Virus record (IMG/VR): IMGVR_UViG_3300033463_006479
Span: 32,001-96,000 of that record
DNA length: 64,000 bases
Direction: 5' to 3' (one strand)
Origin: a virus
Taxonomy: Duplodnaviria; Caudoviricetes
Translations under genes and position numbers: made by a program
In this document: positions 1 to 60,527 of the stretch, piece after piece
Layout of the letters: the number at the start of each line of letters is the position of its first letter
How positions within the stretch are numbered: position 1 is the stretch's first letter
Notes under the pieces: model-generated
What the model was told of the DNA's origin: nothing
Databases searched by the model: none
The model's input: the letters and a program-made list of their open reading frames with translations, nothing else

Positions 1-739
1 AATCAAAAAACATAAACTCCATATCTTTGACATTTGTTACATTCCATTTTGAAATATCACCATTGAAGTATGATTGGTTGAACATATATGACATATCTTC
101 AGCATTTGAAACATTCCAGTTTGAAATGTTGACGTTGAATTTTGATGACATAAACATTCCTCCCATTTTTTTAACATTCGAAACATCCCATCTGGAAATA
201 TCGCCGTTAAAATTGGAGTGCATAAACATATCCTCCATACTGGCAACATTGCTGACATCCCATTTGGAAATGTCCCCGTTGAATTTTGCACCAGCAAACA
301 TACCATACATATTTTTCACATTTGAAACATCCCATTCTGATATGCTCCCTTTGAAATTTGAATATGCGAACATATCCCGCATACTTTCAACGCTTGACAC
401 ATCCCATTTTGATATGTCCCCATTAAACCTTGTGCTGTTGAACATACAATACATATTTTTCACATTTGAAACATCCCAGTAATATATGTCGCCATTAAAA
501 AGTTTAAGATTGTCGCTCATTCTAAACAAGTTTGACATATTTGTTATTGCAGAAACGTCAATGTCGTTGAGGTCGCAGCGATATCCTTTTTCGTTTATGC
601 GTTCCTCTATTATGTCGGCAAGTTCAGTCACGGTACTCGGATGGTGTGTGTATATGACAAGACCAGACAACCTCGTTCTTGTAACTGGGCGTATATTCAG
701 TTTCTCGTTTATATATTCATTTGTGCCAAGTATTCTCAT
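1..739 (-). CDS. Tagged DUF285/BspA-like repeat protein (3' end runs off the window)
   Basis: Translated by hand from ATG at 739: MRILGTNEYINEKLNIRPVTRTRL...CDLNDIDVS...FNGDI.WDVSNV repeats; absent from the ORF track because it is truncated. Confidence 0.85.
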   Translation of the reverse strand, partial: MRILGTNEYINEKLNIRPVTRTRLSGLVIYTHHPSTVTELADIIEERINEKGYRCDLNDIDVSAITNMSNLFRMSDNLKLFNGDIYYWDVSNVKNMYCMFNSTRFNGDISKWDVSSVESMRDMFAYSNFKGSISEWDVSNVKNMYGMFAGAKFNGDISKWDVSNVASMEDMFMHSNFNGDISRWDVSNVKKMGGMFMSSKFNVNISNWNVSNAEDMSYMFNQSYFNGDISKWNVTNVKDMEFMFFD

Positions 740-746
740 AACGCCA

Positions 747-1616
747 TTATAATGTTCTGATTAAATCCTTATACCATTCTGGCGGGGTATTCCATAACGG
801 AGAATCATCAAACATATCCAGACATCTTTTCAGACTTAACGGTTTCCATTTAGATAGGTCTCCGCTGAAATGCGACTTGTAAAACATACAATACATATCC
901 ACAACACTTGAAACATCCCAGTCTGATATATCTCCATTGAAGTCCGAGGACTCAAACATATGCCGCATATTCTTAACTTTTGACACATCCCATTTTGATA
1001 TGTCCCCGTTGAAATCTGCGTCATTGAACATTTCCCTCATATCTTCAACATTACCCACATCCCATTTGGAAATGTCGCCATTGAATTTGCTTCTGCGAAA
1101 CATATAACTCATATTAACAACTTTGCCGACATTCCACTTTGAAATGTCGCCATTGAATTTAGACCAATTAAACATAGTGCTCATATCTGTTACATTTGAC
1201 ACATCCCAGTCTGATATGTCCCCGTTGAACGCTGAATTGCTGAACATACTATGCATATTCGTAACATTGCGCACATCCCATTTTGACAAGTCGCCGTTAA
1301 ATGTGCTGTTGTCGTTGAACATACTTACCATAGTTTTTACATTGGAAACATCCCACTCTGACACGTTTCCGTGGAAGTTCGCACCCTCAAACATATAGTC
1401 CATATCCTCAATAAGCGAAACATCAATGTCGTTGAGGTCGCAATCACGGCCAACTTCTTTTATTCTCTTGAATATAAGCTGAACAAGCTCGTCCTTTGTT
1501 TTTGGAAAATACTTGTATTTTCCGTATTTCCGCTTGTATTCGGACAGTGTGCTTTTTCCTATTGGCTTGATTGTGAGCTTTTCACTTATGTATTTTTCTG
1601 ATTTCAGTATTTCCAT
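747..1616 (-). CDS. Tagged DUF285/BspA-like repeat protein
   Basis: N-terminal tag, then LNDIDVS cap and 24-aa FNGDISxWDVSNVxxMxxMF repeats. Confidence 0.9.
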   Translation of the reverse strand: MEILKSEKYISEKLTIKPIGKSTLSEYKRKYGKYKYFPKTKDELVQLIFKRIKEVGRDCDLNDIDVSLIEDMDYMFEGANFHGNVSEWDVSNVKTMVSMFNDNSTFNGDLSKWDVRNVTNMHSMFSNSAFNGDISDWDVSNVTDMSTMFNWSKFNGDISKWNVGKVVNMSYMFRRSKFNGDISKWDVGNVEDMREMFNDADFNGDISKWDVSKVKNMRHMFESSDFNGDISDWDVSSVVDMYCMFYKSHFSGDLSKWKPLSLKRCLDMFDDSPLWNTPPEWYKDLIRTL

Positions 1617-1623
1617 AATGCTA

Positions 1624-2502
1624 TTAAAATTTATTCAAAGCCTTGTACCAGTCTGGCTTTATATATTCTGATGGCAAATAGCGAAACATATCATACGACA
1701 TTTGCAGACTTTTTACATTCCATCTGGAAATGTCACGATTGAATTTTTTCGCACCCATAAACATAAAATTCATATTTTCTACATTTGAAACATCCCAATC
1801 TGATATGTTTCCATTAAATTGTGATTCTTTGAACATACCTTCCATATTGGTCACGTTGGAAACATCCCATTTTGAGATATTGCCGTCAAACACAGAAAAC
1901 GCAAACATCCAACTCATATTGTTAACATTGGAAACATTCCATCTGGAAATGTCACCATTGAATTTTTCAGCACCGTAGAACATATAAGTCATATCCAACA
2001 CCTTTGACACATTCCATTTGGATAAGTCCCCGTTGAAATTAGAATTGCAAAACATATGTGTCATATCCATCACGTTCTTGACATCCCATTTTGATATATC
2101 CCCGTTGAACGCAGAATTGGAAAACATCTCACTCATATTTAAAACATTATACACCTTCCATTTTGACAAATCACCGTCAAACTCCTCATTTCCTTTGAAC
2201 ATACCTTCCATATTCCACACATTGGAAACATCCCATTCCGATATGTCGCCATTGAATTTGTCGTAATGTGCCGAAAACAATTTGGACATATCTTCAATAC
2301 GTGAAACATCAATATCGTTGAGGTTGCACTCCCACCCTTCATTTACTATCCTTGTGTAAAGTATTTCATTCAAATCACACCTTGTTTTTGGGAAATACTT
2401 GTACTTTTCAAACTTTCGCTTATAGTCGGACAGCGTGGTTTTCCCTATCGGCTTGATGCCCAGTTTCTCATTAATGTATTCGTTTGTATCAAATATCTTC
2501 AT
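1624..2502 (-). CDS. Tagged DUF285/BspA-like repeat protein
   Basis: Start moved to MKIFDTNEYINEKL (2502) to match paralogs; DUF285 repeats. Confidence 0.9.
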   Translation of the reverse strand: MKIFDTNEYINEKLGIKPIGKTTLSDYKRKFEKYKYFPKTRCDLNEILYTRIVNEGWECNLNDIDVSRIEDMSKLFSAHYDKFNGDISEWDVSNVWNMEGMFKGNEEFDGDLSKWKVYNVLNMSEMFSNSAFNGDISKWDVKNVMDMTHMFCNSNFNGDLSKWNVSKVLDMTYMFYGAEKFNGDISRWNVSNVNNMSWMFAFSVFDGNISKWDVSNVTNMEGMFKESQFNGNISDWDVSNVENMNFMFMGAKKFNRDISRWNVKSLQMSYDMFRYLPSEYIKPDWYKALNKF

Positions 2503-2518
2503 AATGTCATTATAATGT

Positions 2519-4039
2519 TTATGCGAGGCTGTCATACCAATATGGTGCTTTTCCGTCAAGCGGTGAGTTGGTGAACATAAACCCGCTCGGTCTCAAACTC
2601 TTCGTGTTCCATCTGGAAAGGTCGCCATTGAATTTTGAATATGCGAACATACAGTCCATATTGACTACATTGGAAACATCCCAGTCCGATATGCTTCCGT
2701 TGAACACAGAAGCTATGAACATACGCTCCATATTCGTAACACTGGAAACGTCCCAATACGATATGTCCCCGTTGAACTTGGAGTTGGCGAACATAAAGGA
2801 CATATCTTCAACATTGGAAACATTCCATTCTGAAATGTCCCCGTTGAAATTTGAATCGGAGAACATTTCTGCCATATATTTCACATTGCCGACATTCCAC
2901 TTTGAAATGTCGCCGTTGAAATTTGACTTTTTGAACATACCGTTCATATTGAAAACACTTGAAACATCCCATCTGGAAATGTCGCCTTGAAATGCCGATT
3001 CAACAAACATCTCTTTCATATTTTCAACTTTGCTGACATCCCATTTTGAAATGTCGCCATTGAAAACCGAATCCTCAAACATATTGTTCATTGCAATAAC
3101 TTTGCCGACATCCCATTTGGAAATGTCACCGTTAAATTTAGACCAGTTGAACATATACGCCATATCTGTTACATTGGAAACGTCCCAGTCCGAGATATTT
3201 TTGTTGAATGACGAATGGCAGAACATCGACCCCATATCCGTAACATTGGAAACATTCCATTTGGAAATATCTCCGTTGAAATATGAACGATAAAACATTC
3301 TATGCATATTTCTGACATTGCTGACATCCCATTCGGATATGTCGCCTTGGAATGTTGTGTTTCTGAACAATTCCACCATTTCGTAAATCATCGAAACATC
3401 AATGTCGTTGAGGTTGCAGAATATGCCTTCTTTCTGTATTCTTTTGTGTATTATGTCCTTCAGCTCTTCTTTCGTTTTCGGAAAATACTTATACTTTCCG
3501 TATTTCCCTTTGTAATCTGAAAGCGTTGTTTTGCTTATCGGCTTGATTATGAGCTTTTCATTCAAGCGTTTTGTGCGTTTCCACACAAATTTGCTGTTGC
3601 CGAGTGTGTAACCCCTTTTGAAAAAATCCAATGTCAGTGGTGTTTGAATTATGTTCGGCCTCATTATGCCACTGATGTGATAGTCTTTGTCAAATGTGGC
3701 GAAAAGATTGTCATTAAATATGCTTGCGTTCATATATTCGAATTTCTTTGAACTATTGTCATAATAAACAAGAAACCCGTCAAGAATAAGGTCTTTGTCG
3801 CCAACAAGTATAAGTTCAAGGCCGCTTAATGATTCGTAGTATTCATTGTATTCCACAACATCCTCATAGGATATGTATGTCAATATGCCAAAAGTGCCTT
3901 TCTGTTTGTTTATTATCACACCATCCCCGCTTTTCAGCATACGCTTCGGCGGATTGCCCAACGTGGAAAGCCTTGTCTTTGTAACTGGCTTTATATCCAA
4001 TTTTTCGTCTATGTATTTGTTTGAATCAAGTATTCTCAT
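2519..4039 (-). CDS. Two-module protein: tag + unknown domain X + internal tag + DUF285 repeats
   Basis: LKSGDGV domain, then internal RLNEKLIIKPISKTTL, then DUF285 repeats. Confidence 0.9.
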   Translation of the reverse strand: MRILDSNKYIDEKLDIKPVTKTRLSTLGNPPKRMLKSGDGVIINKQKGTFGILTYISYEDVVEYNEYYESLSGLELILVGDKDLILDGFLVYYDNSSKKFEYMNASIFNDNLFATFDKDYHISGIMRPNIIQTPLTLDFFKRGYTLGNSKFVWKRTKRLNEKLIIKPISKTTLSDYKGKYGKYKYFPKTKEELKDIIHKRIQKEGIFCNLNDIDVSMIYEMVELFRNTTFQGDISEWDVSNVRNMHRMFYRSYFNGDISKWNVSNVTDMGSMFCHSSFNKNISDWDVSNVTDMAYMFNWSKFNGDISKWDVGKVIAMNNMFEDSVFNGDISKWDVSKVENMKEMFVESAFQGDISRWDVSSVFNMNGMFKKSNFNGDISKWNVGNVKYMAEMFSDSNFNGDISEWNVSNVEDMSFMFANSKFNGDISYWDVSSVTNMERMFIASVFNGSISDWDVSNVVNMDCMFAYSKFNGDLSRWNTKSLRPSGFMFTNSPLDGKAPYWYDSLA

Positions 4040-4053
4040 AATTCATTTATAGT

Positions 4054-4809
4054 TTAACATTTTATTCCACCAGCAATACCGCTTGGTGTTACTTCTGGCA
4101 AAATCAGATTAGGATTTCGCATACAAATAAGCCTGCCTCTGATTTTGTTCGGCGCACCTTTTATTGATATTAGGTCGTTATCGGAACAATCAAAATCCCC
4201 TCCCACTTCTTGTGGTGCTCCTTCAAGCGATGTCAGTTTGTTGTGGTAACATACAAAATCCCCATTGACAATTTTCGGTGCTCCTTCGAGTGTTGTCAGT
4301 TGGTTTTTGGCACAAATGAAATCCCCGCCAACTATTTGCGGTGCGCCTTCAAGGGAAGTGAGGTTGTTTTCATCACAAAAAAATCCTTTTCCGATTTTAC
4401 TTGTCGCACCTTTAAGCGTTGATAAGTTGCTGTGGCCGCAATAATAATTTCCCATAATGCTTTTTGGGGAATGTTCCAACGATTTAAGCATATTGCTATT
4501 GCAGTTGAAATCCCCTTCTATTTCTTCTGGAACACCATAAAGTGTGGTAAGCCCGATTTTATAACAAGTGAAATCGCCTTCAACACGACCGAACTTTATG
4601 ATTAGTTTCCCGTTATTTACAGCATCAGTGCCAAGAATGACATTATGCTTGCAGTCAAACCGTTTCGTGTTCTCATTCCAGATGAGGTCGTATTTTTCAA
4701 CAAGCTCCCTATTCACCTCAACGCACAAATCACCAAGCCTTGATTTTGAAATCGGCTGGATTGTGAGCTTTTCTGTTATGTATTCTTCTGTCCTTAATAT
4801 CTTTGCCAT
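4054..4809 (-). CDS. Tagged 22-aa leucine-rich-repeat protein
   Basis: FxCxxNxLTSLEGAPxxVGG repeats. Confidence 0.88.
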   Translation of the reverse strand: MAKILRTEEYITEKLTIQPISKSRLGDLCVEVNRELVEKYDLIWNENTKRFDCKHNVILGTDAVNNGKLIIKFGRVEGDFTCYKIGLTTLYGVPEEIEGDFNCNSNMLKSLEHSPKSIMGNYYCGHSNLSTLKGATSKIGKGFFCDENNLTSLEGAPQIVGGDFICAKNQLTTLEGAPKIVNGDFVCYHNKLTSLEGAPQEVGGDFDCSDNDLISIKGAPNKIRGRLICMRNPNLILPEVTPSGIAGGIKC

Positions 4810-4817
4810 ATCTTTTA

Positions 4818-5621
4818 TTAAATATTGAAATCATCAACGCCTTCAATTACATCGCTCAAATTTACTGATTCCATTTTTTCATTATTGTCAATATACCATC
4901 CGCATTTTCTTTTTAAAGAGCCGCCTTTCCACACCATTTTGATATATTGTACTGGATTTCCATATATGTCCTTACTTATGTCTTTGCCGTCTATGGCTTT
5001 TTCATAATTGTATATGCCGTAAAAATAATCAAAAAATCCTTGGTCTGCATATTTATTATAATTAGGCCGAACTATATCCTTTATGAAAAGGACTGTTAGG
5101 TTTTTTATATTGCTGGTGAATATATCTGACTTGCAATCAATAAGTTCACTCAAATTATAAAAAACATATTTCATACCAAGATAAGTTATTGATGTATCCC
5201 AGATTGCAGCAATCGGTGCTATTTCTACGGATTGGTTGCTGCTACAAACAGTAACATTATTTTTGGTAAGTACGCTTATTGCGGAATCATATATGTTTTT
5301 TGGTACTGTTTTTACCCATTCAGATTTATCATTTTTCAAACACCAAGAAGGCTTAAAAACCAAATCAAATTCATTTTTATTGTTACGGGCATAAGCAAGA
5401 GCATATTCATCATAGTTGAACGAAGGATATGCCCATTTCCGTTTACACCAAAGAGCATAGGCCAGAGTGTATATGGTTTCATCAGTAGTTTGAGGACAAT
5501 CAATGTAATTTTCCGCATTGAAAAAATCCTTATACTTTTTGAATCTGTGCAAACGACCTTTATTAACTGGCTTAATTGTAAGTTTTTCAGCAATATAATC
5601 TTCTGTTCTTAATATGTTCAT
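4818..5621 (-). CDS. Tagged protein with unknown domain Y
   Basis: MNILRTEDYIAEKLTIKP; CPxTxxETIYTLAYAL motif shared with two neighbours. Confidence 0.8.
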   Translation of the reverse strand: MNILRTEDYIAEKLTIKPVNKGRLHRFKKYKDFFNAENYIDCPQTTDETIYTLAYALWCKRKWAYPSFNYDEYALAYARNNKNEFDLVFKPSWCLKNDKSEWVKTVPKNIYDSAISVLTKNNVTVCSSNQSVEIAPIAAIWDTSITYLGMKYVFYNLSELIDCKSDIFTSNIKNLTVLFIKDIVRPNYNKYADQGFFDYFYGIYNYEKAIDGKDISKDIYGNPVQYIKMVWKGGSLKRKCGWYIDNNEKMESVNLSDVIEGVDDFNI

Positions 5622-5641
5622 AATACTTAAATTGTTGTTTT

Positions 5642-7351
5642 TCAAATGATTAAGTTGTCAAGTCCATCAACAAAATCAGAGAATTTCACTGGTGTCAATT
5701 TGCCGTCAATCTCCATAAGCAATCCGCTGTCCCTATTCCATATAACTTCCAGATATTTCACATCGTTTCCGTATATGTCCTTGGTCAAATCTTTGGCCAT
5801 TTCACCTTCAAAATATTCCTTGTCCGCATATTTCTGGTATTGCGGACGGACGATACTTTTCAAAAAACGAGCGACAAAATACGACTTGGTATATTTTATG
5901 TAACCGTCATACATACTGAAATCGTCAATTTCATATAAGCTGTGAATAACGTCATTATGCTCATCGTGTATGATACACAGTCCGATTTTGGGGGCAATTT
6001 CCATAAGCCCGCTTGCGGCTTGGCAAACCGCCTCCCCGTTTCTGTAAAGTATGTCAATGGCGGAATCATATATACTCTGGCTTGTTATTTTTTTCGACCA
6101 TTTGCATTTTTCAAGTTTTTCACGTTGAAGCTGCAATCTTATCTCTTCAAATTTCACTCTGATGCCTTTCGGACTGTTTGAGTCATACATTAAATAATAA
6201 TCGTACTTATCAAATTTTGGATTTATCCAAAGGTGTGTGGCAAACAGAGCATTTGCCAAAGCGTATGTCGTTTCATCAAAGGTTTTCGGGCATTCAATGA
6301 AATTGTCCGAATCATAGATGTTGTCATACTTTTTTATTCCGTGCAGGCGTTCCCTGCTGACTGGCCGTATGTTGAGTTTTTCATTCACACTTTCTGAAAC
6401 CTTGTCGGCTGGAACATATTTCTTGTTGTACCTGCTCCATATTGTGGCGGTATCCATATTTTCAACCCACTCTCTGTCATCAAGGCGGTTTATGTAATTC
6501 CTTGTGAGTTCCGATTTCTGGTTCACATCCTTCAATATGTAGTTTACCGTAATGTATTTGCTTGAAAGGTTGTTGTCAAGGTCGGCCACCGAAATTGATA
6601 TGCAACTTGCACCACTATCAATATCTCCTTTTTTGAACAATATGCCTTCCTCCGATGCTTTCATTGTTATCATATATCCATAAGAAAGAAGCAGTTTTTC
6701 GTATTTTTTCAAATCGTCCTTTCCTATGAATACCATTGTGAAACCTTCGTATGTGTTGGTATCAATCAGTCTGTCGCCTATAACAATGTCCCCAGTATGC
6801 AGTTTGTTTTTCGGAAGAATTGTGCGTTTGGCGTTGTCAAGCCTTGCTTTGGTGACTGGCCTTATGTCAAGTTTTTCTTCAACATTTTTTGGTCTTTCCC
6901 AAAGCATATAGCTCCCTTCTGGTGCGATGCCCCTTTTCAAGTATTCCATTGTAAGTGGCTTTGGCAAGTTTTTTCCACGCATTATGCCAAACGCTTCAAT
7001 CCTATTGTCGGATGGGAATTTCAGATTTTCGTCAAACAGACCAGCCTTCAGATATGCAAATGTGTTTTTATTTTTATCGAAACCGATAAAAACGCCATCA
7101 TCCAAACTGCCTTGCGCATCGTGGTAAATGTGGTGTATCCCTTTCCATTTGTAGCAGCCAAGTCGTTTGAACTCATCATATGATATATAGAAAAACGCAG
7201 CAAATCTTTGCTCTATGGTATGCATCATAACCAAATCTCCGTCTTTCAACAGTTTCTTCGGTGACTTTGAAAGATTGTGCAGCATTGTTTTTGAAACTGG
7301 CCTTATGTCAAGTTTCTCGTTCATATAGTCGGTGGTTTTCAATATTCTCAT
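5642..7351 (-). CDS. Three-module protein: tag-X, tag-X, tag-Y
   Basis: Three tag copies (MNEKLDIRPVSK, VEEKLDIRPVTK, VNEKLNIRPVSR) separate the domains. Confidence 0.85.
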   Translation of the reverse strand: MRILKTTDYMNEKLDIRPVSKTMLHNLSKSPKKLLKDGDLVMMHTIEQRFAAFFYISYDEFKRLGCYKWKGIHHIYHDAQGSLDDGVFIGFDKNKNTFAYLKAGLFDENLKFPSDNRIEAFGIMRGKNLPKPLTMEYLKRGIAPEGSYMLWERPKNVEEKLDIRPVTKARLDNAKRTILPKNKLHTGDIVIGDRLIDTNTYEGFTMVFIGKDDLKKYEKLLLSYGYMITMKASEEGILFKKGDIDSGASCISISVADLDNNLSSKYITVNYILKDVNQKSELTRNYINRLDDREWVENMDTATIWSRYNKKYVPADKVSESVNEKLNIRPVSRERLHGIKKYDNIYDSDNFIECPKTFDETTYALANALFATHLWINPKFDKYDYYLMYDSNSPKGIRVKFEEIRLQLQREKLEKCKWSKKITSQSIYDSAIDILYRNGEAVCQAASGLMEIAPKIGLCIIHDEHNDVIHSLYEIDDFSMYDGYIKYTKSYFVARFLKSIVRPQYQKYADKEYFEGEMAKDLTKDIYGNDVKYLEVIWNRDSGLLMEIDGKLTPVKFSDFVDGLDNLII

Positions 7352-8127
7352 AGCGGTTTCCAAATGTTTAAATTGAATTTGTCTTTCATAAAGTCGGAGA
7401 ATTTAAGACAGACTTTCGTTCCAATGCTGTCATTGGCGATATAATAAAGATGCCCGTCATCGTTCACGTCCCAATCCACTGCGAAATACAATATTTCATT
7501 TCCTTTCAAGTCGGTGTTTATATGGTATTTTTTGTTTGCGTAGTTCTGGTATTTTGGAAGAAGCAGGTCTTTTCTTATATATGCCGTGAAATGCTTTATT
7601 TTCTTTTTTATATATTCTTCAAGTTCTTTGATTTCAGAATCGTCAAACAGAAATACTTCAGTATGTGATTTTGCATCATCCCAACCTTTTTGTATCATTT
7701 CAAACCCAATCTTCGGTAAAATCTTGATGAGGTTTGTCTTTTTGTCAAGCCCCATTATTTCGCCGTGGTTTGACAGAACACCAAGTGCGGAGTCGTATGT
7801 GCTTTTGTCTGCTATGTCCTTCACCCAGTCATAAACTGTAACTGTGCTCATCAAATACTTTTCATAAAAAAGAAAGGGTATTGTGTTGGTGCTTGTATAT
7901 CGTATGCAGTATTTGTATTTCTCAAAATTCGGTTTTCTCCAGTATCTTTGCGCAAACAGCGTGTATGCCAGAGTGTATATGGTTTCCTCCATTGTGGTAG
8001 GGCACGTCTTGTAGTTGTCCGCATTGTAGAACTCCCTATACTTCCTTATGTCGGTAAGGCGTGCCCTTGTTATCGGCTTGATGTCCAGTTTCTCGTTTAT
8101 GTATCGGTTTGAATCAAGTATTCTCAT
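7348..8127 (-). CDS. Tagged protein with unknown domain Y
   Basis: MRILDSNRYINEKLDIKP; CPTTMEETIYTLAYTLF. Confidence 0.8.
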   Translation of the reverse strand: MRILDSNRYINEKLDIKPITRARLTDIRKYREFYNADNYKTCPTTMEETIYTLAYTLFAQRYWRKPNFEKYKYCIRYTSTNTIPFLFYEKYLMSTVTVYDWVKDIADKSTYDSALGVLSNHGEIMGLDKKTNLIKILPKIGFEMIQKGWDDAKSHTEVFLFDDSEIKELEEYIKKKIKHFTAYIRKDLLLPKYQNYANKKYHINTDLKGNEILYFAVDWDVNDDGHLYYIANDSIGTKVCLKFSDFMKDKFNLNIWKPL

Positions 8128-8146
8128 AAGCATAATTGTTCACCTA

Positions 8147-8158
8147 TATTTATAAATA
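8147..8158. promoter_or_regulatory. Overlapping bidirectional T4-type late promoter (TATTTATAAATA)
   Basis: TATAAATA on both strands between divergent genes. Confidence 0.7.
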
Positions 8159-12251: not shown

Positions 12252-12800
12252 ATGCAAATACTCAAATCTGAAAGTTATATAAGCGAGAAACTCGGTATTA
12301 AACCAGTTACAAAAACAAGGCTGATTGACATAAAGGAAAGTTTTGTTATTGCAACCGACCGTAATATAGAAGATATTTTGAGTAAAGCCATAGAAAAATA
12401 CGGAAACAATGCCGATTTGAATTTCATATTGACACATAAAGTTACTGATATGCATAGTTTGTTCACATATGAATCTGAATTTAATGGCGACATTTCAAAA
12501 TGGGATGTAGGCAACGTGACAAATATGAGTTATATGTTTCGCAGAAGCAAATTCAATGGCGACATTTCCAAATGGGATGTGTCAAATGTGACTTCTATGT
12601 ATGCTATGTTTTGCCAATCAAAATTCAATGGTGATATTTCCAAGTGGAATGTTTCAAATGTTATTGATATGGAACATATGTTTTTTATGTCAGAATTTAA
12701 TGGAAACATATCAGAGTGGAATGTAAACAAATATGCCATTATGAATGAAACGTTTTACAAATCTCCACTTGAAAAAAATCCGCCAGCTTGGTACAAATAA
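12252..12800 (+). CDS. Tagged DUF285 repeat protein
   Basis: MQILKSESYISEKLGIKP; DUF285 repeats; TATAAATA at 12226. Confidence 0.9.
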   Translation: MQILKSESYISEKLGIKPVTKTRLIDIKESFVIATDRNIEDILSKAIEKYGNNADLNFILTHKVTDMHSLFTYESEFNGDISKWDVGNVTNMSYMFRRSKFNGDISKWDVSNVTSMYAMFCQSKFNGDISKWNVSNVIDMEHMFFMSEFNGNISEWNVNKYAIMNETFYKSPLEKNPPAWYK

Positions 12801-12809
12801 TAACTTACT

Positions 12810-13280: not shown

Positions 13281-13285
13281 TAGTT

Positions 13286-18715: not shown

Positions 18716-18724
18716 ATCAAAATT

Positions 18725-19240: not shown

Positions 19241-19243
19241 ACT

Positions 19244-41341: not shown

Positions 41342-41371
41342 ATAAATAATGTATTGTTATTTAATGCTATT

Positions 41372-48229: not shown

Positions 48230-48278
48230 AAATTGATGGTTTATGTGGTTTATATATGAGTTACTTATTTTTTCTGTA

Positions 48279-52093: not shown

Positions 52094-53788
52094 ATGGCAG
52101 GTTTTATTACCACAAGGAAAGACCCAAGGACATACGCAACAACTAACAGAGTGTCGAAGATGCTGCGAAAAATCAGCAACCTCGGTATGGACTTTGACGG
52201 AAAAGTGTTCAAAAATTCAAGGGCAATCGGTCTTTATGATGTTGACCCTACAACACCGAACACCCAAATATTCCAATATGAAGATTCTATATATGACATA
52301 TTCCAAGGGTTCTCGTACACAGACCCGTCAATGCACAAGAACGTGTCAATCTATGACCAGCGTTACGATGACAGAAAGCGCAACGAACTGCGCAGGCTCG
52401 CTATGCAGGACGAGATTGAGGACATTCTTGACATTTTGACAGACGAAACAATATGTTATAACAAGAATGGATTGTTCTGCGAATTGCTTTATGACAAAAC
52501 CCTATTGACCGATGAACTGAACACGGAGGTTGTTGATATATTCAACAGCATATATTCCTATTTCGGTTTCTGGGACCAAAATATGGCTTGGGGTTATTTC
52601 CGCAAATTCCTCATTGAAGGCTTCCTCGCATTTGAAATCATATATGACGGAGAGCCGACAAAACCAGAAACACAGAAGAATATCATAAACTTCAAGGAAC
52701 TTGACATCCTTTCGTTAATTCCAGCAGTTTCGCAGCAGACTGGAGAGAAAATCTGGATTCAATATCCGAATGACCCAGCCAAGCAGCGTGTGCTTTACGA
52801 CTCACAAATCATATATATAAGTTATGCGCAGTTTGACAGCGCAAGCCGTGTTTCCTATGTGGAACGTTTGTCAAGGAGTTTCAACCTTCTCCGTATTATG
52901 GAGAGCACGAGGATTATGTGGGCTGTAACAAATTCAAGTTACAAGACATTGTTCACCATACCAGTTGAAAGTTACAGAAACCGTGGTCAGCAGACACTTG
53001 CGCAGATGATGCACAACTACAAGGAGATTATTGATTTCAACGAGGAAAGCGGTGAACTGCACGTGAACGGAAGGCCGATGATGCCGTTCAGCAAGGAATA
53101 CTGGTTTCCAAGTGTAGGAGGAGAAAGCCCGCAGATACAGACCTTGGGCGGTGACGGACCAGACCTCTCCGACACCGAGGCACTCAACTACTTCAAGCAG
53201 AAACTCTGGCAGACCAGCAAGATTCCGTTCACCCGTTTTGACAACACGCAAGGCCGTGGAAGTTATGCGTTGAACACCGAATCTATGATGCGTGAGGAGG
53301 TGAAGTTCAACAACTTTGTAAACCGCCTGCGAAGCATATTCAAGGAAATACTCATAAAACCCGTATATATACAACTCTGTCTTAAACATAAGGAGTTCTC
53401 AACAGATGTTTCATTCAGAAACTCTCTTACGCTTGACTTTGTTTCTGATAACGTGTTTACTGAAATGCGTGAAACCGAGGTGTTGCAGAAGAAATCTGAA
53501 TTTATTTCCGCTATGATGCAGAACCTCGTTACACAAGACAGCGAGGGTAATGATGTTCCGTATTTTGACCTCGACTTCCTTGTTATGCGTTTCAGTGGTA
53601 TGACACAAGAGGACTTGGACACCAACAAAAAGTTCAAGGAAAGAAAGGAACTCCAAAAAGAAGGCTATAAGGATGAGGATATAGAGAAGATACTTGACGG
53701 TGCTGACAAAGCCGACTTCAAAGCGGAAAAGAAAGAGGAAAAGAAAGAGGACGAGGATGAAGAAGGCGGCGGAGGGTTCTCATTGTAA
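52094..53788 (+). CDS. gp20: Portal protein, T4 gp20-like
   Basis: SYVERL.RSFNLLRIME, EYWFP..GG..PQIQTLGG, YFKQKL..SKIPFTRF, REEVKF..FVNRLR. Confidence 0.92.
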   Translation: MAGFITTRKDPRTYATTNRVSKMLRKISNLGMDFDGKVFKNSRAIGLYDVDPTTPNTQIFQYEDSIYDIFQGFSYTDPSMHKNVSIYDQRYDDRKRNELRRLAMQDEIEDILDILTDETICYNKNGLFCELLYDKTLLTDELNTEVVDIFNSIYSYFGFWDQNMAWGYFRKFLIEGFLAFEIIYDGEPTKPETQKNIINFKELDILSLIPAVSQQTGEKIWIQYPNDPAKQRVLYDSQIIYISYAQFDSASRVSYVERLSRSFNLLRIMESTRIMWAVTNSSYKTLFTIPVESYRNRGQQTLAQMMHNYKEIIDFNEESGELHVNGRPMMPFSKEYWFPSVGGESPQIQTLGGDGPDLSDTEALNYFKQKLWQTSKIPFTRFDNTQGRGSYALNTESMMREEVKFNNFVNRLRSIFKEILIKPVYIQLCLKHKEFSTDVSFRNSLTLDFVSDNVFTEMRETEVLQKKSEFISAMMQNLVTQDSEGNDVPYFDLDFLVMRFSGMTQEDLDTNKKFKERKELQKEGYKDEDIEKILDGADKADFKAEKKEEKKEDEDEEGGGGFSL

Positions 53789-53802: not shown

Positions 53803-54333
53803 ATGAGAATACTTGACACCAGCAGATACATAAACGAGAAACTTGTCATCAAGCCAATATCAAAATCAAGGCTTGGTGAATTTCTAAAATGCACGGAATT
53901 TCCAAAAACAAAGGATGAGCTTCGGGAAATCATAGAGGAACGAATGAAAAAATACGGGAACAACTGCAATCTGAATGACATTGACGTTTCCGAAATAACC
54001 GATATGAGCTGGCTGTTCTCAATCAATTTTGGATTGTCAAGGTTTTCTGGAAACATATCCAGATGGAACACAAGCAATGTGAAGAATATGTCGCATATGT
54101 TCTACTGGGCAAAAGATTTCAATTGCGACATATCAAAATGGGATGTCAGTAATGTATATAATATGGAATCTATGTTTGAACAAGCAGAATCGTTCAATCA
54201 AGATTTGTCCAACTGGAATACACAGAATGTTGGTTTCCGCATATTTGACGGAGGATATAAAAAAATATTCTATGGCTGTCCGTTGAAATCCCAACCAGAA
54301 AAACAACCTATTTTCAAAGATGCGAATACTTGA
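53803..54333 (+). CDS. Tagged DUF285 repeat protein
   Basis: Tag + repeats; directly follows the portal gene. Confidence 0.9.
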   Translation: MRILDTSRYINEKLVIKPISKSRLGEFLKCTEFPKTKDELREIIEERMKKYGNNCNLNDIDVSEITDMSWLFSINFGLSRFSGNISRWNTSNVKNMSHMFYWAKDFNCDISKWDVSNVYNMESMFEQAESFNQDLSNWNTQNVGFRIFDGGYKKIFYGCPLKSQPEKQPIFKDANT

Positions 54334-55390
54334 TACTGACGAATACATAAACGAAAAACTTATCATACAACCGTTCACAAAAACGCAGCTTGCGAATAAA
54401 GGTCGTGGTAAGCACAAATGGTTTCCAAAAAGCAACGAGGAACTGAAGGCCATTGTGCGTTCAAGGATAGAAAAAGAAGGTGACGGCTGCAATCTCAACG
54501 ACATTGATGTTTCTTGCATCACTGATTTTTCAAAGGTGTTTTATGGCATAGTGGTAAATGTGGACATTTCCGAATGGAATGTGTCAAACGCATCCAATAT
54601 GACAAGTATGTTTGAATACTCAAACTTTAACGGGGATATCTCAAAATGGGATGTTTCAAAAGTGGTTACTATGTCGCATATGTTCTATGGCTCGGCGTTC
54701 AACCAAAACATATCAAATTGGGATGTGAGCAATGTTGAAGATATGGAATGCTTGTTTGGACACACGGTCTTTAACCAAGACATATCAAAATGGAATGTCG
54801 GAAAAGTTCGGACATTCGTAAAAATGTTCTTCCGTAACCATTGTTTCAATGGCGACATTTCTGGTTGGAATGTCAGCAGTGCCTACAATATGTGTGGAAT
54901 GTTTGAAGAAAGCAGATTCAACGGTGATATTTCCAAATGGGATGTTTCTGGGGTTATGTTTATGTCCTTTATGTTTTGTGGAAGCAAATTTGACGGAGAT
55001 ATATCCAGATGGGATGTTCATAATGTGAACTATATGGATAATATGTTCAAAGACAGCGAGTTCAACGGAGACATATCAGACTGGAACACCAGCAGTGTGT
55101 CGTTTATGGAGTTTATGTTTAAAAATTCCAAATTCGACAGCAATATTTCCAAATGGGATGTATCAAGTGTGCAAACTATGGAATGTATGTTCTATGGCTC
55201 TAATTTCAATGATGACATATCAAATTGGAATACAAAAAATGTTACGAATATGAAAGGTATGTTCGCATATTCAAAATTTGATGGCGACATTTCAAACTGG
55301 GATGTTTCTGGAGTTACCGACCATACGAGTATGTTCACATATTCACCGCTCGCAAGGTTTAAACGGAAACAGCCAAAGTTCAAGATATGA
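54320..55390 (+). CDS. Tagged DUF285 repeat protein
   Basis: Tag + about 11 repeats. Confidence 0.9.
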   Translation: MRILDTDEYINEKLIIQPFTKTQLANKGRGKHKWFPKSNEELKAIVRSRIEKEGDGCNLNDIDVSCITDFSKVFYGIVVNVDISEWNVSNASNMTSMFEYSNFNGDISKWDVSKVVTMSHMFYGSAFNQNISNWDVSNVEDMECLFGHTVFNQDISKWNVGKVRTFVKMFFRNHCFNGDISGWNVSSAYNMCGMFEESRFNGDISKWDVSGVMFMSFMFCGSKFDGDISRWDVHNVNYMDNMFKDSEFNGDISDWNTSSVSFMEFMFKNSKFDSNISKWDVSSVQTMECMFYGSNFNDDISNWNTKNVTNMKGMFAYSKFDGDISNWDVSGVTDHTSMFTYSPLARFKRKQPKFKI

Positions 55391-55453
55391 TATTCGGCCA
55401 GTCTTTAACGACTGACCTTTTTGTTGTTCTTATAAATATAGAAAATGTGTGCT

Positions 55454-56455
55454 ATGCGAATACTTGACTCCAACAGATTCATAAACGAAAAACTTGACAT
55501 TAAGCCAGTTTCAAAAACAAGGCTGGCCGAACTGCGTCCGCACAAACACCACCCGAAAACAAAAGATGAACTTGTCGATTGCATATTAAACCACATTTAC
55601 GATAATGGAATTAAATGTGATTTGAACGACATTGATGTTTCGGAAATAACTGATATGTACGGCTTGTTTTCCGACAACTACGGGTTTGACAAATTCAATG
55701 GAGATATTTCCAAATGGGATGTTTCAAATGTGAGGGATATGGAAGGTATGTTCGCTGGTTCACAATTCAACGGGGATATATCAGAATGGAATGTTTCAAA
55801 CGTGGATAATATGGAATCTATGTTTCAAAGGAACAAGGCTTTTGACGGGGATATTTCCAAATGGAATGTGTCAAGCGTAAAGGAAATGGATTTTATGTTC
55901 AAAAATTCATCATTCAACGGGAACATATCAAACTGGAATGTCGGCAATGTTCTTTCTATGAAAGAAATGTTTATGTATTCACAATTTAATAGCGACATTT
56001 CAAAGTGGAATGTCAGCAATGTGAAAAGTATGGAATCTATGTTCAGTGATTCCATATTTGACAAGGACATATCGGGTTGGGATGTGTCAAGTGTAACCAA
56101 TATGAGTTATATGTTCTGTTCATCAAAATTTGACAAAGATATTTCAAAATGGAATGTGTCAAATGTGAAAACTATGGCATCTATGTTCAGTGATTCCATA
56201 TTTGACAAGGACATATCGGGTTGGGATGTGTCAAGTGTAACCAATATGAGTTATATGTTCTGTTCATCAAAATTTGACAAAGATATTTCAAAATGGAATG
56301 TGTCAAGCGTAACCACTATGGAAAGTATGTTTGAAGATTCAGTGTTCAACGGAGATTTGTCTGGATGGAACGTTGTCAATGTAACAAATGACAAACATAT
56401 GTTCCGTAGATGCCCCATTGAGAATGACACCAAGAAACAACCATTGTTTTTTTAA
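55454..56455 (+). CDS. Tagged DUF285 repeat protein
   Basis: Tag + repeats; late promoter at 55431; recent internal duplication. Confidence 0.9.
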   Translation: MRILDSNRFINEKLDIKPVSKTRLAELRPHKHHPKTKDELVDCILNHIYDNGIKCDLNDIDVSEITDMYGLFSDNYGFDKFNGDISKWDVSNVRDMEGMFAGSQFNGDISEWNVSNVDNMESMFQRNKAFDGDISKWNVSSVKEMDFMFKNSSFNGNISNWNVGNVLSMKEMFMYSQFNSDISKWNVSNVKSMESMFSDSIFDKDISGWDVSSVTNMSYMFCSSKFDKDISKWNVSNVKTMASMFSDSIFDKDISGWDVSSVTNMSYMFCSSKFDKDISKWNVSSVTTMESMFEDSVFNGDLSGWNVVNVTNDKHMFRRCPIENDTKKQPLFF

Positions 56456-56457
56456 GT

Positions 56458-57486
56458 ATGCGTATTTACAGAACTGACATATTCAATGAGAAACTTTCCA
56501 TACAGCCAGTAACAAAAACAAGGCTTAATGATATGGGTGTTGCTTTTAGCAAAGACCCAAAAAAACTTTTGCAAGCTGGCGACAGTGTTGTGATTAAAGA
56601 CAGCGCATATCCAAAAGGGATAAATGGTATGTTTATGCTATATGTGCCAGATGAGGATATGCGCAAATACGAATATGCCAAAAAATTTAATTTGTCTGGG
56701 TATTACAAATATAGTGATGCCGAGCGTAATGAGGGTGCATTTATCGGCCATAGTCCAAGCGGTTTCATTTTTGCACTGTTGAACAACTTTGATTGTTTAT
56801 TGAATTGTTGGACACGCCCAAACGGTGAACTGAAAGTCATTGAAATACGTAGATATGACAATATACAGAAGCAGCCATTTGACGAATATATTGTGAAGCG
56901 TGGCGGTACTGTCTTTGATGGAACATACGAAACGATATGGAAATGCGATGACAAATTAAATGAGAAACTTTCCATACAGCCAGTAACAAAAACAAGGCTT
57001 AATGATATGCATCCGTACAATTATAGGCCGACAACAAAAGCCGAACTTATAAGAATAATGGACAAACGCATATTGGATGAAGGCTTGCATTGCAACCTCA
57101 ACGACATAAATGTTTCAGCAATAAAAGATATGTCTGGGCTGTTTATGACTGATTTCAACAGATTTGACGGCGACATATCTGAATGGAATGTTTCCAATGT
57201 CGTTGATATGAGCCGTATGTTTTATGATTCGGATTTCAATGGCGACATATCAAAGTGGAATGTCGGTAAAGTTGAGAATATGTATCAGATGTTCGCATAT
57301 TCAAAGTTTAATGGAAAAATATCAAACTGGGATTTGTCAAGTGTGAATGATATGTTCCAGATGTTCGCAAATTCATATTATTCAAGGGATTTGTCCTGCT
57401 GGGATATTTCACACGTTAGGGATACTGGAAATATGTTCAGCGGTTGTCCGCTTGAATCAAAAAAAGAAAAGCAACCTCAATATTAA
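56458..57486 (+). CDS. Two-module protein: tag-X, tag-DUF285
   Basis: Identical NEKLSIQPVTKTRLNDM occurs twice. Confidence 0.9.
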   Translation: MRIYRTDIFNEKLSIQPVTKTRLNDMGVAFSKDPKKLLQAGDSVVIKDSAYPKGINGMFMLYVPDEDMRKYEYAKKFNLSGYYKYSDAERNEGAFIGHSPSGFIFALLNNFDCLLNCWTRPNGELKVIEIRRYDNIQKQPFDEYIVKRGGTVFDGTYETIWKCDDKLNEKLSIQPVTKTRLNDMHPYNYRPTTKAELIRIMDKRILDEGLHCNLNDINVSAIKDMSGLFMTDFNRFDGDISEWNVSNVVDMSRMFYDSDFNGDISKWNVGKVENMYQMFAYSKFNGKISNWDLSSVNDMFQMFANSYYSRDLSCWDISHVRDTGNMFSGCPLESKKEKQPQY

Positions 57487-57490
57487 GATT

Positions 57491-58516
57491 ATGGAAATAA
57501 TGGATACCAAAAAATACAATGAGAAATTGGATATAAAGCCAATGTCAAGGACACAGCTTATGTCAAGAAGCTGGGATATTTTCGGGCAACTGAAAGACGG
57601 CGATGTTGTAATCGTGCATTGCGATACAATGAACGGTATAGAAGATGTGAGGTTTGTGTTTGTTTCCGAAGAAAGTATGAGGAAGTACGCATATGCGAAA
57701 ACCTACAATTTCACTTTATACACATCCAATTTATATAGCGATAGGCAGCACGGCACGCTTATAGCATATTACTCAAACAAGTTTTCATATACATTGTTCA
57801 GCAAGTTTAGAAGAAATGGGGAATATAAAGCGGATAGAAGTGGTTACAGATATATAATAAAGGAGATAAGAAGATACGACAAACCTCCGTATCAGCCGTT
57901 CTCTGATTTGTATTTCCAACAGATAGGCAATTATGGAAACTATACCATATTGTATAGCAATTCGATAACGACAAAAATCAGCGAGAAACTGAACATAAGA
58001 CCTATTTCAAAAAGTCAGCTCGGATTGTATAAGACGAAAACTGTTACAATAAACGGACAGATTTGGACAGCCGAAAACGCATCAACCACAAGAGCGAATG
58101 ACGGCACTCGTCTTGTTGAGGGTGTTGATTATTTCGTGCATAACGGTGAATACTTCTATACGGAAATGAGTGCACAAAAAATTATTCCTTATGGTTGGCG
58201 ATTGCCATATACAAATGATTGGTATCATTTGTTTTCATCTGTAAATGGTAATGTTTTATCACTTGTATCAAAAGAATATGGCGGAACTGATGACTATGGG
58301 TTTGGTATAAAATTTCTTGGGATATATGGAAAGAGCAGGATGATAGGAGAAAACCAATATGCAAATTTCATTATCGGTGATAAAAAAGAAACGGATGGCA
58401 GCACAAATACTATGAAGTTGCTTAACGGAGACCAATATAATGAAAACGGAACTATGTGGGAGGAAACGCTGCCTGGTGTGTATGGTGTATCGTTGAGATT
58501 TATAAAAAACACATAA
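57491..58516 (+). CDS. Two-module protein: tag-X, tag-FISUMP (Fibrobacter succinogenes major paralogous domain)
   Basis: Internal ISEKLNIRPISK; TVTINGQIWTAEN, PYGWRLP, GTDDYGF, SLRFIK. Confidence 0.8.
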   Translation: MEIMDTKKYNEKLDIKPMSRTQLMSRSWDIFGQLKDGDVVIVHCDTMNGIEDVRFVFVSEESMRKYAYAKTYNFTLYTSNLYSDRQHGTLIAYYSNKFSYTLFSKFRRNGEYKADRSGYRYIIKEIRRYDKPPYQPFSDLYFQQIGNYGNYTILYSNSITTKISEKLNIRPISKSQLGLYKTKTVTINGQIWTAENASTTRANDGTRLVEGVDYFVHNGEYFYTEMSAQKIIPYGWRLPYTNDWYHLFSSVNGNVLSLVSKEYGGTDDYGFGIKFLGIYGKSRMIGENQYANFIIGDKKETDGSTNTMKLLNGDQYNENGTMWEETLPGVYGVSLRFIKNT

Positions 58517-58520
58517 AACA

Positions 58521-58988
58521 ATGGAACGCATACACGAGAAACTTGGTATAAAACCGATAACAAGGGAACGGCTGAAGAACATCAAACTGGACGGATTAAA
58601 AGGTCTGCTCAAAACTGGTGATGTTGTTACAATAATAATGACATATACGAGCGGAAGAACAGAGGAAAGACGATATGTTTTTATTTCGGAAACCGATATG
58701 CCGAAATACGAAAGACTGTTCGGATTTGAAACTTGGGGAAGAAACAAGGCATATTCCATTGACGGATTTTTCGTTCATTATGATATTGTGCGGTACAAAT
58801 ATCTGGCTGTTTCAAATTTTGACAAAAACCTTGTATATAACGACAACTATGGTACGATACGAGAAGTTGTGCAGATAAAGAGAATGTCAAATCCGCAGCC
58901 GTTGGACGAAAGATATTTTTTGAGAATCAAAAGCGTCATTTTTGATGAACTGGATGAATTTGACATCATCGTTTTTGAAAAGAAATAG
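58521..58988 (+). CDS. Tagged protein with domain X
   Basis: IHEKLGIKPITRERL; LKTGDVV. Confidence 0.8.
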   Translation: MERIHEKLGIKPITRERLKNIKLDGLKGLLKTGDVVTIIMTYTSGRTEERRYVFISETDMPKYERLFGFETWGRNKAYSIDGFFVHYDIVRYKYLAVSNFDKNLVYNDNYGTIREVVQIKRMSNPQPLDERYFLRIKSVIFDELDEFDIIVFEKK

Positions 58989-58992
58989 TATT

Positions 58993-59556
58993 ATGAAAAT
59001 ATTTGACATCGAACAATTAAATGAGAAACTTGACATAAAGCCCGTTACGAAAAGCGGACTTAATGACATATTGTTTTCAAGTCGTGTCAAGATTGGTAAA
59101 AATATATGGACTTCAAAGAACTACAACATTACTGTTTGCGCAGACGGAAGCCAGCTTGAAGAAGGTCAAGATTATGTAAAGAACGGCGATGATGTATATT
59201 ACGCATACAAAGCGGCTGAACGGGTAGTTCCGAATGGATGGCATCTTCCGACATATAAAGATGTAGAAGCGTTGTTTATTTCGGCGGCTGGAAGCAGGGA
59301 TTGGCTATTGTCAAAAAGTTTGGGCGGAAAAGACATTTTCGGTTTCAACGCACTTTATACTGGATATGTTGGAACAACTGGTGCTGTAAACGGCAAGGTT
59401 TGCGGTTTTGGCGATAGGTCTTTCTTTTGGTGTGATGACTTTGTTGATTCTGAAGGATATGGATATGTCGCATTAAAATCAAATTACAACAAACTTATAT
59501 ACGACCGTACAAAATCATATATAAAACTACCGATAAGACTTGTGAAAAACATATAA
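58993..59556 (+). CDS. Tagged FISUMP-domain protein
   Basis: VKIGKNIWTSKN, PNGWHLPT, FGFNALYTGY, FFW, PIRLVK. Confidence 0.82.
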   Translation: MKIFDIEQLNEKLDIKPVTKSGLNDILFSSRVKIGKNIWTSKNYNITVCADGSQLEEGQDYVKNGDDVYYAYKAAERVVPNGWHLPTYKDVEALFISAAGSRDWLLSKSLGGKDIFGFNALYTGYVGTTGAVNGKVCGFGDRSFFWCDDFVDSEGYGYVALKSNYNKLIYDRTKSYIKLPIRLVKNI

Positions 59557-59566
59557 CGCCATTATA

Positions 59567-60070
59567 ATGAGAATATTGAAATGCGGAGATTTCATAAACG
59601 AAAAACTTGACATAAAGCCAGTTTCAAAAGAAAGGCTGTCCGATATGGGTGCGGAGTTTAACAACGAAATTACGCAACTGTTAAACAAATGGAGCACTAT
59701 GGAACTTGCTGAACACATAGACATACAAAACAATTTGCTTAAACACGGAATACGAGATACAAGAGGTCGTTTTATTGAAACTTTTACTCATATACGATTT
59801 AAGGTTGAAGACAAGTTTGACAGCTTTTGGCGAGATTACCGATATGGCAGCTATAAAAACGATAAAGCACATTTCTACAAAAAACACAAGAAATATGCTA
59901 ACAACAAACAATTAAGGCCACAGACTATAATTATGTCGCTGCTTGTTATGCTTGAAAAGAATCTGAAAGACAAATTCTATTATCCAATAATTGAACTATA
60001 TCTTGAACGTTTCAAGGAGCAATACATTATTGGAAACGATGAAATTGAGCATATATTTTTCAAGCAATAA
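59567..60070 (+). CDS. Tagged hypothetical protein
   Basis: FINEKLDIKPVSKERL. Confidence 0.8.
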   Translation: MRILKCGDFINEKLDIKPVSKERLSDMGAEFNNEITQLLNKWSTMELAEHIDIQNNLLKHGIRDTRGRFIETFTHIRFKVEDKFDSFWRDYRYGSYKNDKAHFYKKHKKYANNKQLRPQTIIMSLLVMLEKNLKDKFYYPIIELYLERFKEQYIIGNDEIEHIFFKQ

Positions 60071-60527
60071 TTTTGCTGAATAAAATGTCGCATAATGCTT
60101 TTTCTCCAATAGGAAACTTTATGCAGAAATCACGAACATACAATTTCACGATTTCAATGTAGTCTTTTTTCATATCAAATTCGTGATTGCAATATATGTC
60201 AAAAATAGCATATAGACGAAGCAACTCTGAATTTCTTGATAGGTTTCCAATACTTTTGAGTATTATTGAACTGTGAAGTATATGATTATCTTTGATACAA
60301 GCGATTTCAGCCCATTTCAGATATGTTTTGACACTTTGCTTGACTTGTGCCTCAACATCAATATAATCAAATTCGATACGCATTTTTAAACGCAGGTTTT
60401 CGATATATATTGGCAGCAAAACCAGTTTCTTGTGTATGGAAAGTGCATACTCAACATCACCCATACCTTTCATTGATTTGAGCCGTTTGGCTGTTATAGG
60501 TGTTATGTCAAGTTTCTTGTGTTCCAT
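60060..60527 (-). CDS. Partially tagged hypothetical protein, probable paralog of 59567-60070
   Basis: KKLDITPITAKRL; shared C-terminal Y..I..LY...F.....IG......I.F. Confidence 0.7.
   Translation of the reverse strand: MEHKKLDITPITAKRLKSMKGMGDVEYALSIHKKLVLLPIYIENLRLKMRIEFDYIDVEAQVKQSVKTYLKWAEIACIKDNHILHSSIILKSIGNLSRNSELLRLYAIFDIYCNHEFDMKKDYIEIVKLYVRDFCIKFPIGEKALCDILFSKIIA

Follow-up and report, generated by a model that had tools for sequence, protein, structure and literature searches.

A two-part N-terminal leader on dozens of genes of a huge-phage fragment, a candidate signal for head loading and protease cleavage

The internal head proteins of bacteriophage T4 are diverse and have only a capsid-targeting sequence (CTS) in common (PMC3012670), which reads MKTYQEFIAE (PMC8442874). 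It has been suggested that the CTS may be an evolutionary means of loading varied proteins (PMC9026906; also PMC3012670). The T4 protease gp21 cuts after L/I-x-E, and mutagenesis has assigned CTS residues 4 and 7 to targeting and residues 8 and 10 to processing (PMC9026906). Here we describe a 26-residue N-terminal leader that is shared by dozens of genes in a 64,000-nt stretch of DNA (the window), which comprises bases 32001–96000 of one 192,463-bp IMG/VR virus record (38% G+C). The count of tagged genes per ORF refers to positions 1–60527 of the window. We propose that the leader is probably a two-part signal for head loading and protease cleavage, carried by polyprotein-like cargo within a T4-type head assembly.

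The resemblance to the T4 CTS lies in a short N-terminal leader on unrelated cargo that ends in aromatic-I-x-E, known here from sequence alone. It extends to a gp21-family protease, found in a close relative, to matching L/I-x-E sites in the capsid and scaffold proteins, and to the position of the genes with the head genes. Scale and build are different. About 80 genes per 192 kb carry the leader, compared with three to five in T4; the leader is built of two parts that total 26 residues, and the second of these would remain attached after maturation and is repeated where modules meet; and the cargo consists of repeat-type binding domains, mostly acidic, whereas that of T4 consists of small basic proteins. 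With only 10–12 residues to compare, homology between the leader and the T4 CTS cannot be established.

Two other systems bear comparison. The giant phages phiKZ, 201phi2-1 and SPN3US likewise have dozens of head-internal proteins, including paralog families, that gp21-like proteases cut after Glu at a short motif (PMC9026906), and their inner-body or ejection propeptides, as far as these sources describe them, may carry several cut sites (PMC9026906; PMC7411985, PMC10052503). However, the phiKZ-type motif is S/A-x-E and no single common leader sequence has been described for these phages. DUF285 has also expanded in AaV, a giant virus of algae: 13% of its coding regions contain the domain, and two such proteins were detected in purified particles (PMC7507832). 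However, AaV is a eukaryotic nucleocytoplasmic virus, for which a common leader and prohead-protease logic have not been described.

Occurrence of the leader and lineage of the record

We searched for the leader with a regular expression (regex) and then with a 26-position hidden Markov model (HMM) built from 31 regex hits. The consensus is MxILKSxxYINEKLxIKPVTKxRL, in which M1, K13, L14 and P18 are invariant (34 copies). The HMM detects about 40 full N-terminal leaders in the window, together with six internal half copies and about four genes that start at the second half. The sequence-only reading of this DNA had noted one N-terminal tag on about 44 genes, more than half of those present. 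This agrees with our count on the crude ORF (open reading frame) calls available, which number 70 in 1–60527 and 259 in the whole record: the leader is on 43 of the 70, and 60060–60527, with the second half only, brings the total to 44. Across the whole record there are 95–97 leader copies, in about 80 of the 259 ORFs.

A search of 1.84 billion proteins gave leader matches in 170 clusters at 50% identity. Full leaders begin at Met1 in the ~40 window genes, and almost all of the 150 representative clusters show the same position. Among relatives, the profile has 77 matches in a 413-kb contig (G001, below), 18 in a 121-kb fragment and none in two further fragments. No family in Pfam or PHROG spans the leader. 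The profile has no match in five related huge phages (2.5 Mb), compared with 97 in the positive control, and Tenacibaculum phage PTm1 and Sphingomonas phage PAU lack it in the same search. A strict peptide pattern is found in only four of 2.9 million IMG/VR contigs, and a strict DNA pattern gave only two chance hits, within a membrane protein, in 185,579 prokaryote genomes. The absence of profile matches in related phages and the rarity in these collections argue that the leader is not a chance pattern. Thus, it is confined to a narrow lineage.

The capsid gene (10367–12169) places this lineage. Its product belongs to the T4 Gp23 family (PF07068, 107 bits), and the closest GenBank capsid proteins are from an uncultured 462-kb phage (43.6% identity), the Prevotella Lak megaphages (~33%), Tenacibaculum phages PTm1 and PTm5 (30%) and PAU (29%). 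By its capsid protein, the lineage is T4/Lak/PTm1-like and not phiKZ-like. A megablast search with 12 kb of the window gave no match among GenBank phages. The closest IMG/VR relative by capsid protein (88% identity) is the contig G001, which has 413,021 bp and is rated 100% complete. The window's own record is classed as linear in IMG/VR, with a CheckV completeness estimate of about 70%. Given the size and completeness of G001, the record is most likely one piece of a huge-phage genome of ~400 kb, and probably less than half of it. The genes have no visible upstream Shine-Dalgarno sequences, which fits a Bacteroidota host, although the host itself is not established.

Two-part anatomy and matching sites in head proteins

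The leader divides into part 1 (MxILxxxxYIxE, residues 1–12) and part 2 (KLxIxPVTKxRL, residues 13–26), each of which is also found alone. Part 1 alone is seen as MENIKTFGEFINE (ORF 16497–17684), MRILRSSQFIAE, MKILDSNSFIKE, MVKSYIEFITE and MSTILALEEFIVE, of which MENIKTFGEFINE, MVKSYIEFITE and MSTILALEEFIVE are short CTS-only leaders in this record. Part 2 alone begins four adjacent genes upstream of the window as well as 34550–35272, 43659–43997 and 60060–60527 within it. Furthermore, part 2 with a preceding [ILV]-x-E is repeated inside multi-module proteins with a period of ~150 aa. Examples in the window are 2519–4039, 5642–7351, 13841–14440, 56458–57486 and 57491–58516.

Comparison of the N-terminal and internal copies, taken from the record and the 150 representative clusters, separates two sets of conserved positions. 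The comparison was anchored on K-L-x-I-x-P, so that the preceding residues, including the Glu, were not required. Both kinds of copy have Glu at P1 (188/191 N-terminal, 54/55 internal) and an aliphatic residue at P3 (172/191 and 51/55). An aromatic P4 is found in 159 of 190 N-terminal copies and in only 4 of 55 internal ones, and Leu or Ile at P9 in 160 of 184 N-terminal copies, with no preference at this position in the internal set. Internal copies thus retain exactly [ILV]-x-E, and the aromatic or hydrophobic P4 and P9 are kept at true N-termini only. Read as putative cleavage residues in all copies and targeting positions in addition at N-termini, this pattern matches the T4 mutagenesis. 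A related metagenomic contig, L001, with 28 leaders in 15 kb, contains the variants MKTYEEYIEE-KL (MKTYEEYIEE-KLNIKP), MKTYEEYISE-KL and MKKYEEFIKE-KL. These appear to bridge the leader of the window and the T4 CTS. MKTYEEYIEE has Y4 and Y7 as in T4.

Two other classes of leader were considered and rejected. The consensus is hydrophilic and charged throughout and has no hydrophobic core of ~10 residues after a basic N-terminus, unlike a Sec, Tat or lipoprotein signal peptide. The cargo consists of whole folded domains, unlike that of RiPP-type leaders.

Sites of the same kind are predicted in the head proteins. The capsid protein begins MYYNSINE|SQ (predicted cut at residue 8) and later has KQMLNE|SVDGHAHLNPNM, with a predicted MLNE|SVDGHAH site at residue 51. 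The INE|S and LNE|S sites, and the MENIKTFGEFINE start of ORF 16497–17684, are as the sequence-only reading had given them. At the place of MLNE|S, [LI]-x-E is kept in nine relatives, including PTm1, PAU and Lak, and T4 gp23 has FLTE|AEIGGDHGY at the homologous place in its own record.

A candidate protease is encoded by G001, as part of a 647-aa protease-scaffold fusion (L012:115-2058:-). Its N-terminal 170 residues are a Peptidase_S77 domain (PF03420, 48 bits against a cut-off of 27), which matches the T4 gp21 structure (5JBL, E 1.9e-6) and is 36% identical to the PTm1 'prohead core scaffolding protein and protease'. The tail of the fusion consists of 12 tandem 14-residue repeats, each with [DE]-Y-[LI]-A-E-[KQH]-[LMV] (DYLAE(K/Q)L) and hence a predicted protease site, and a 61% identical homolog in another relative (L016) has 12–13 such repeats. 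This tail is an unusually regular scaffold design. The Y-[IL]-x-E-K-L core of the repeats coincides with the best-conserved stretch of the leader (Y9, I10, E12, K13, L14). A similar relation is seen in T4, where the gp22 record contains QLIAE, KLAE, KIAE (twice) and WLAE sites that mirror the FIAE end of the CTS. A structure prediction of G001 protease-scaffold residues 1–450 with the leader alignment scored 0.00, was run without controls and counts neither way on binding.

We propose that part 1 (M-x-I-L-x4-[YF]-I-x-E) would act like the T4 CTS and bring the protein into the prohead scaffold core. A gp21-family prohead protease would then remove part 1 after the Glu, at [ILV]-x-E|K-L, a kind of site that is also present in the scaffold (DYLAE|KL repeats) and in the capsid propeptide (LNE|S). 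Multi-module proteins would be loaded once through their single part 1 and then cut at internal [ILV]-x-E|KL sites, so that each released module would begin KLxIxPVTKxRL. The mature modules, namely leucine-rich repeat (LRR), DUF285, FISUMP and unassigned domains, would remain in the head beside the DNA. The first half of the leader had earlier been read as a T4-like packaging and cleavage signal. Several independent lines of sequence evidence support this reading, namely the comparison of copies, the capsid site, the G001 protease-scaffold, the L001 variants and the promoter motif TATAAATA described below. Packaging and cleavage themselves are inferences, and so are delivery into the host and a possible function of the basic peptide left behind, such as DNA tethering or an exit signal.

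A different setting for the same cleavage was considered. A 173-aa ORF outside the window (record bases 104441–104962(−)) has weak matches to Peptidase_S77 (18–21 bits, below the cut-off) and phrog_207. It is conserved in G001 (C1:39148-39570(+), 39% identity), where it is separate from the protease-scaffold fusion. Such a small second S77-like paralog could act on polyproteins whose maturation takes place in the cytoplasm. In that case, both the leader and its internal copies would be processing sites and linkers, and the products would not be loaded into heads and would act in the infected cell or leave at lysis. The likeness of internal copies to cleavage sites and the acidic cargo fit this scheme. 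It leaves unexplained why the aromatic P4 and the Leu at P9, which match the T4 targeting residues, are confined to N-termini, why T4-CTS-like variants exist, and why the genes lie behind capsid and portal genes under a head-gene promoter motif; moreover, known gp21-family proteases work inside proheads (PMC9026906). We consider cytoplasmic maturation quite unlikely.

Cargo, codon use and promoter motif

Under this one leader stand at least 20 unrelated cargo clusters. The sequence-only reading had counted 15 DUF285, 14 LRR and two FISUMP genes, and Pfam searches together with clustering reproduce these numbers. DUF285 (PF03382) is found in 15 of 41 tagged proteins, at up to 517 bits, and Fib_succ_major (PF09603, FISUMP) in two. 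The LRR cargo is recognized by Pfam in 5–6 genes, through weak matches, and by clustering in 14 window genes, which belong to one cluster with 24 members in the record. The remaining cargo comprises about 20 singleton clusters and a domain of ~135 aa without family assignment, the 'X/Y' of the sequence-only reading (signature LKTGD). This domain is the most reiterated cargo module and often precedes other cargo within the same protein. A model of the X domain of 28105–28605 had no match in the PDB by Foldseek at E ≤ 0.001. A MafB19-like deaminase match for one representative tagged protein (E 2e-5) was dropped, as no representative has a deaminase motif.

We used AlphaFold to explore how the leader relates to the cargo fold. 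In the prediction of 28105–28605 (31-sequence alignment), residues 1–30 are coil with a pLDDT of 47–62, and the cargo domain reaches ~90 or more. In the two-module protein 56458–57486, the first domain is predicted with confidence up to about residue 162 and the internal copy at 166–185 has low confidence. The second module did not fold (pLDDT <50), so the internal copy is placed only as lying beyond the first folded domain. Based on these models, the leader is a flexible appendage outside the cargo fold.

This bears on the idea that the leader is instead a docking peptide for alternative binders on the virion exterior, in head fibers, decoration or a tail-fiber network, with the cargo as a large adhesin repertoire. 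In branched receptor-binding proteins, the anchors known are folded domains of more than 100 residues, unlike the unstructured 26-residue leader. LRR, DUF285 and FISUMP domains are typical surface or adhesion modules, a gene with a weak match to a baseplate hub (phrog_150, E 7e-4) is located downstream of one tagged array, and the related jumbo phages PTm1 and PAU bear head fibers or mop-like tail fibers (PMC7824862). However, these two phages are the ones found above to lack the leader. A protease motif repeated at module boundaries would be useless for an external anchor, and ~80 external proteins would require equally many docking sites. External docking thus seems very unlikely.

Next, we compared codon use along the leader. 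Synonymous variation is free at L4, Y9, L14, I16 and K21, and codons are biased at I3, I10, N11, K13, P18 and T20. The distant contig L001 shares only GAG-AAA (E12-K13) and ATA (I16), and encodes P18, R23 and L24 by other codons. Since synonymous codons vary at conserved residues, selection acts mainly on the leader peptide, and part of the codon bias probably stems from recent common descent or gene conversion. Glu12-Lys13 is GAG-AAA in 68–76% of leaders, here and in the distant relative, though GAA is the usual Glu codon (73%). This preference may avoid a run of A's.

The biased codons, the GAG-AAA common to a distant relative, the lack of visible Shine-Dalgarno sequences and the fast turnover of the repertoire between relatives could also point to a nucleic-acid feature. 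The conserved 5′ segment would then be a recombination cassette for cargo swaps or a non-Shine-Dalgarno initiation region, and the peptide would have no targeting role. We regard this as highly improbable, given the free synonymous positions, the residues that L001 keeps with different codons, and the internal in-frame copies, which cannot start translation. Recombination at the leader would be compatible with head loading and does not exclude it.

The motif TATAAATA occurs in 59 copies, against 29 expected from base composition, and ~38 of these lie 4–60 nt upstream of a same-strand start. It precedes the capsid gene (at 10260) and the portal gene (at 52058) and heads every tagged array in the window, at 8147–8154(−), 12226, 17798, 24292, 31779–31786(−), 38224–38231(−) and 55431; at the first of these arrays it lies 13 nt upstream. 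In relatives it is also found upstream of the protease-scaffold and capsid genes. Through this common motif, the tagged genes are tied to head-gene expression.

Several observations weigh against head loading. Genes with part 2 but no part 1 at their start would, by this reading, escape it. The predicted mature cargo is acidic to neutral, with a median pI of 5.8 compared with 6.6 for untagged proteins (p = 0.007) and a median length of 233 aa, unlike the basic internal proteins of T4. Small basic mature proteins are typical of T4 IPI–III, yet they do not define CTS cargo, Alt being large. LRR, DUF285 and FISUMP domains typically mediate binding outside the cell, and long solenoids among them would need to traverse the tail. 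Fourteen conserved residues follow the predicted cut, which exceeds the needs of a protease site; K13-L14 may provide P1′–P2′ recognition, as the scaffold repeats likewise have K/Q-L there. The tag HMM does not match the scaffold protein significantly (E 0.11), their likeness being confined to a six-residue motif. The window's own record contains no copy of the protease-scaffold fusion gene, which is compatible with the record being a fragment. Finally, T4 gp55 used as a query found no homolog in the record or G001, so that 'late' timing rests on the TATAAATA motif common to head genes and on the T4 analogy.

The conservation of part 2 could have a further meaning. KLxIxPVTKxRL might be a second address, such as a DNA tether, a tail-exit signal or an N-degron timer that acts through the N-terminal lysine, and might let a ~400-kb lineage deliver 75 or more LRR and DUF285 binders into the host. 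This agrees with the retention of part 2 on every polyprotein module, and we put it forward as a speculative and on balance unlikely extension of the head-loading proposal.

Layout of the window and meaning of the leader

The tagged genes of the window are grouped in arrays. The first, on the minus strand at 2–8133, has eight leader-bearing genes (2–739, 747–1616, 1624–2502, 2519–4039, 4054–4809, 4818–5621, 5642–7351 and 7348–8127), with HMM scores of 45–56 bits at each start, and runs on past the window start. Its cargo comprises DUF285 (by Pfam), the X domain and an FKKY family. Three internal half copies, all found by the HMM and on the minus strand, lie in this array. LNE-KLIIKPISKTTL (3515–3562) stands between the X and DUF285 modules of 2519–4039, at residue 161 of 507, and covers HMM positions 11–26. 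VNE-KLNIRPVSRERL (6341–6385) and VEE-KLDIRPVTKARL (6839–6880) are both in 5642–7351.

Tagged genes follow the capsid and portal genes directly, as had been noted from the sequence. Behind the capsid gene, which is on the plus strand, stand four leader-bearing genes at 12252–14440(+) (12252–12800, 12810–13280, 13286–13831 and 13841–14440), with an internal half copy at 14330–14377(+) by the HMM. Two homing endonuclease genes (phrog_3339, phrog_559 HNH, DUF7487) are present, 8199–10178(+), which lies directly upstream of the capsid gene, and 41327–42727(+). A homing endonuclease beside the capsid gene is also present in T4 and PTm1.

The portal gene (52094–53788(+), phrog_213, 1.3e-64) is followed by eight leader-bearing genes at 53803–60070(+) (53803–54333, 54320–55390, 55454–56455, 56458–57486, 57491–58516, 58521–58988, 58993–59556 and 59567–60070). 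These carry DUF285, the X domain with FISUMP, and singleton cargo, and include internal half copies at 56941–57003 and 57977–58021 (both +). The oppositely oriented gene 60060–60527(−) starts with MEHKKLDITPITAKRL, a weak second half (HMM 7.5 bits) whose N-terminus was read directly.

The largest array, at 17825–28605(+), has 14 head-to-tail leader-bearing genes, 13 with LRR cargo (by clustering) and one with the X domain (28105–28605), at 49–62 HMM bits. Five DUF285 genes form another at 34550–38198(−), where 34550–35272 has the second half only and 35274–35978, 35982–36764, 36768–37553 and 37560–38198 have the full leader. A leader-bearing singleton at 31375–31749(−) has the diverged leader MTKILKSNEYNKLDEGLSIKP (31 bits), and 43659–43997(−) starts at the second half (MLDIKPITNTQL, 12 bits, HMM positions 14–25). 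ORF 16497–17684(−) encodes a 395-aa singleton with the first half only, the T4-CTS-like MENIKTFGEFINE|S, for which there is no Pfam, PHROG or Atlas match and no relative in G001–G004. At 38252–38401(+), a leader (43 bits) is followed by only ~25 further codons in an open frame of 66 aa, and is probably a disrupted tagged gene.

Three TnpB / IS605 OrfB genes are present, at 14629–16266(+), 30029–31255(−) and 38592–39893(+) (PF07282, PF01385, PF12323), each with TATAAATA upstream. Two of them adjoin truncated tagged genes, namely the leader-only 38252–38401 and 13841–14440, whose second module ends ~20 residues past the half copy. TnpB elements may have inserted into tagged genes. The window also contains a phage-borne CRISPR-Cas-lambda locus, with an array at 44042–45814 of ~27 copies of a 36-nt repeat (GTTGTAAATAGCATACAAACATAGCCATTCAACA..) at a 66-nt period and an adjoining 814-aa ORF (45899–48343(−)) that matches the CasLambda structure 8DC2 (E 8e-126). 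The ORFs called at 44274–44783 and 45404–45766 overlie the CRISPR array and are spurious.

Compared with the described systems, four aspects of the leader system are new: its scale, at ~30% of genes; a two-part leader with a conserved peptide that would be retained; the reiteration of the leader at module boundaries of polyprotein-like cargo; and cargo of repeat-type binders together with a scaffold of tandem copies of the same site. If our proposal is correct, this lineage uses the T4 capsid-targeting principle on a larger scale, with cargo in polyprotein form and a second peptide that is retained. The head cargo of uncultured huge phages of this lineage could then be listed from sequence alone, and at ~30% of genes would be far above that of any studied phage. 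The leader profile and the scaffold repeats would provide a handle for mining such cargo in metagenomes, for addressing the role of LRR and DUF285 binders in the host cell, and for designing packaging tags for Bacteroidota phages. Should part 2 be a second address as well, a fast-evolving library of binders would work like an injected, antibody-like repertoire against host defenses.

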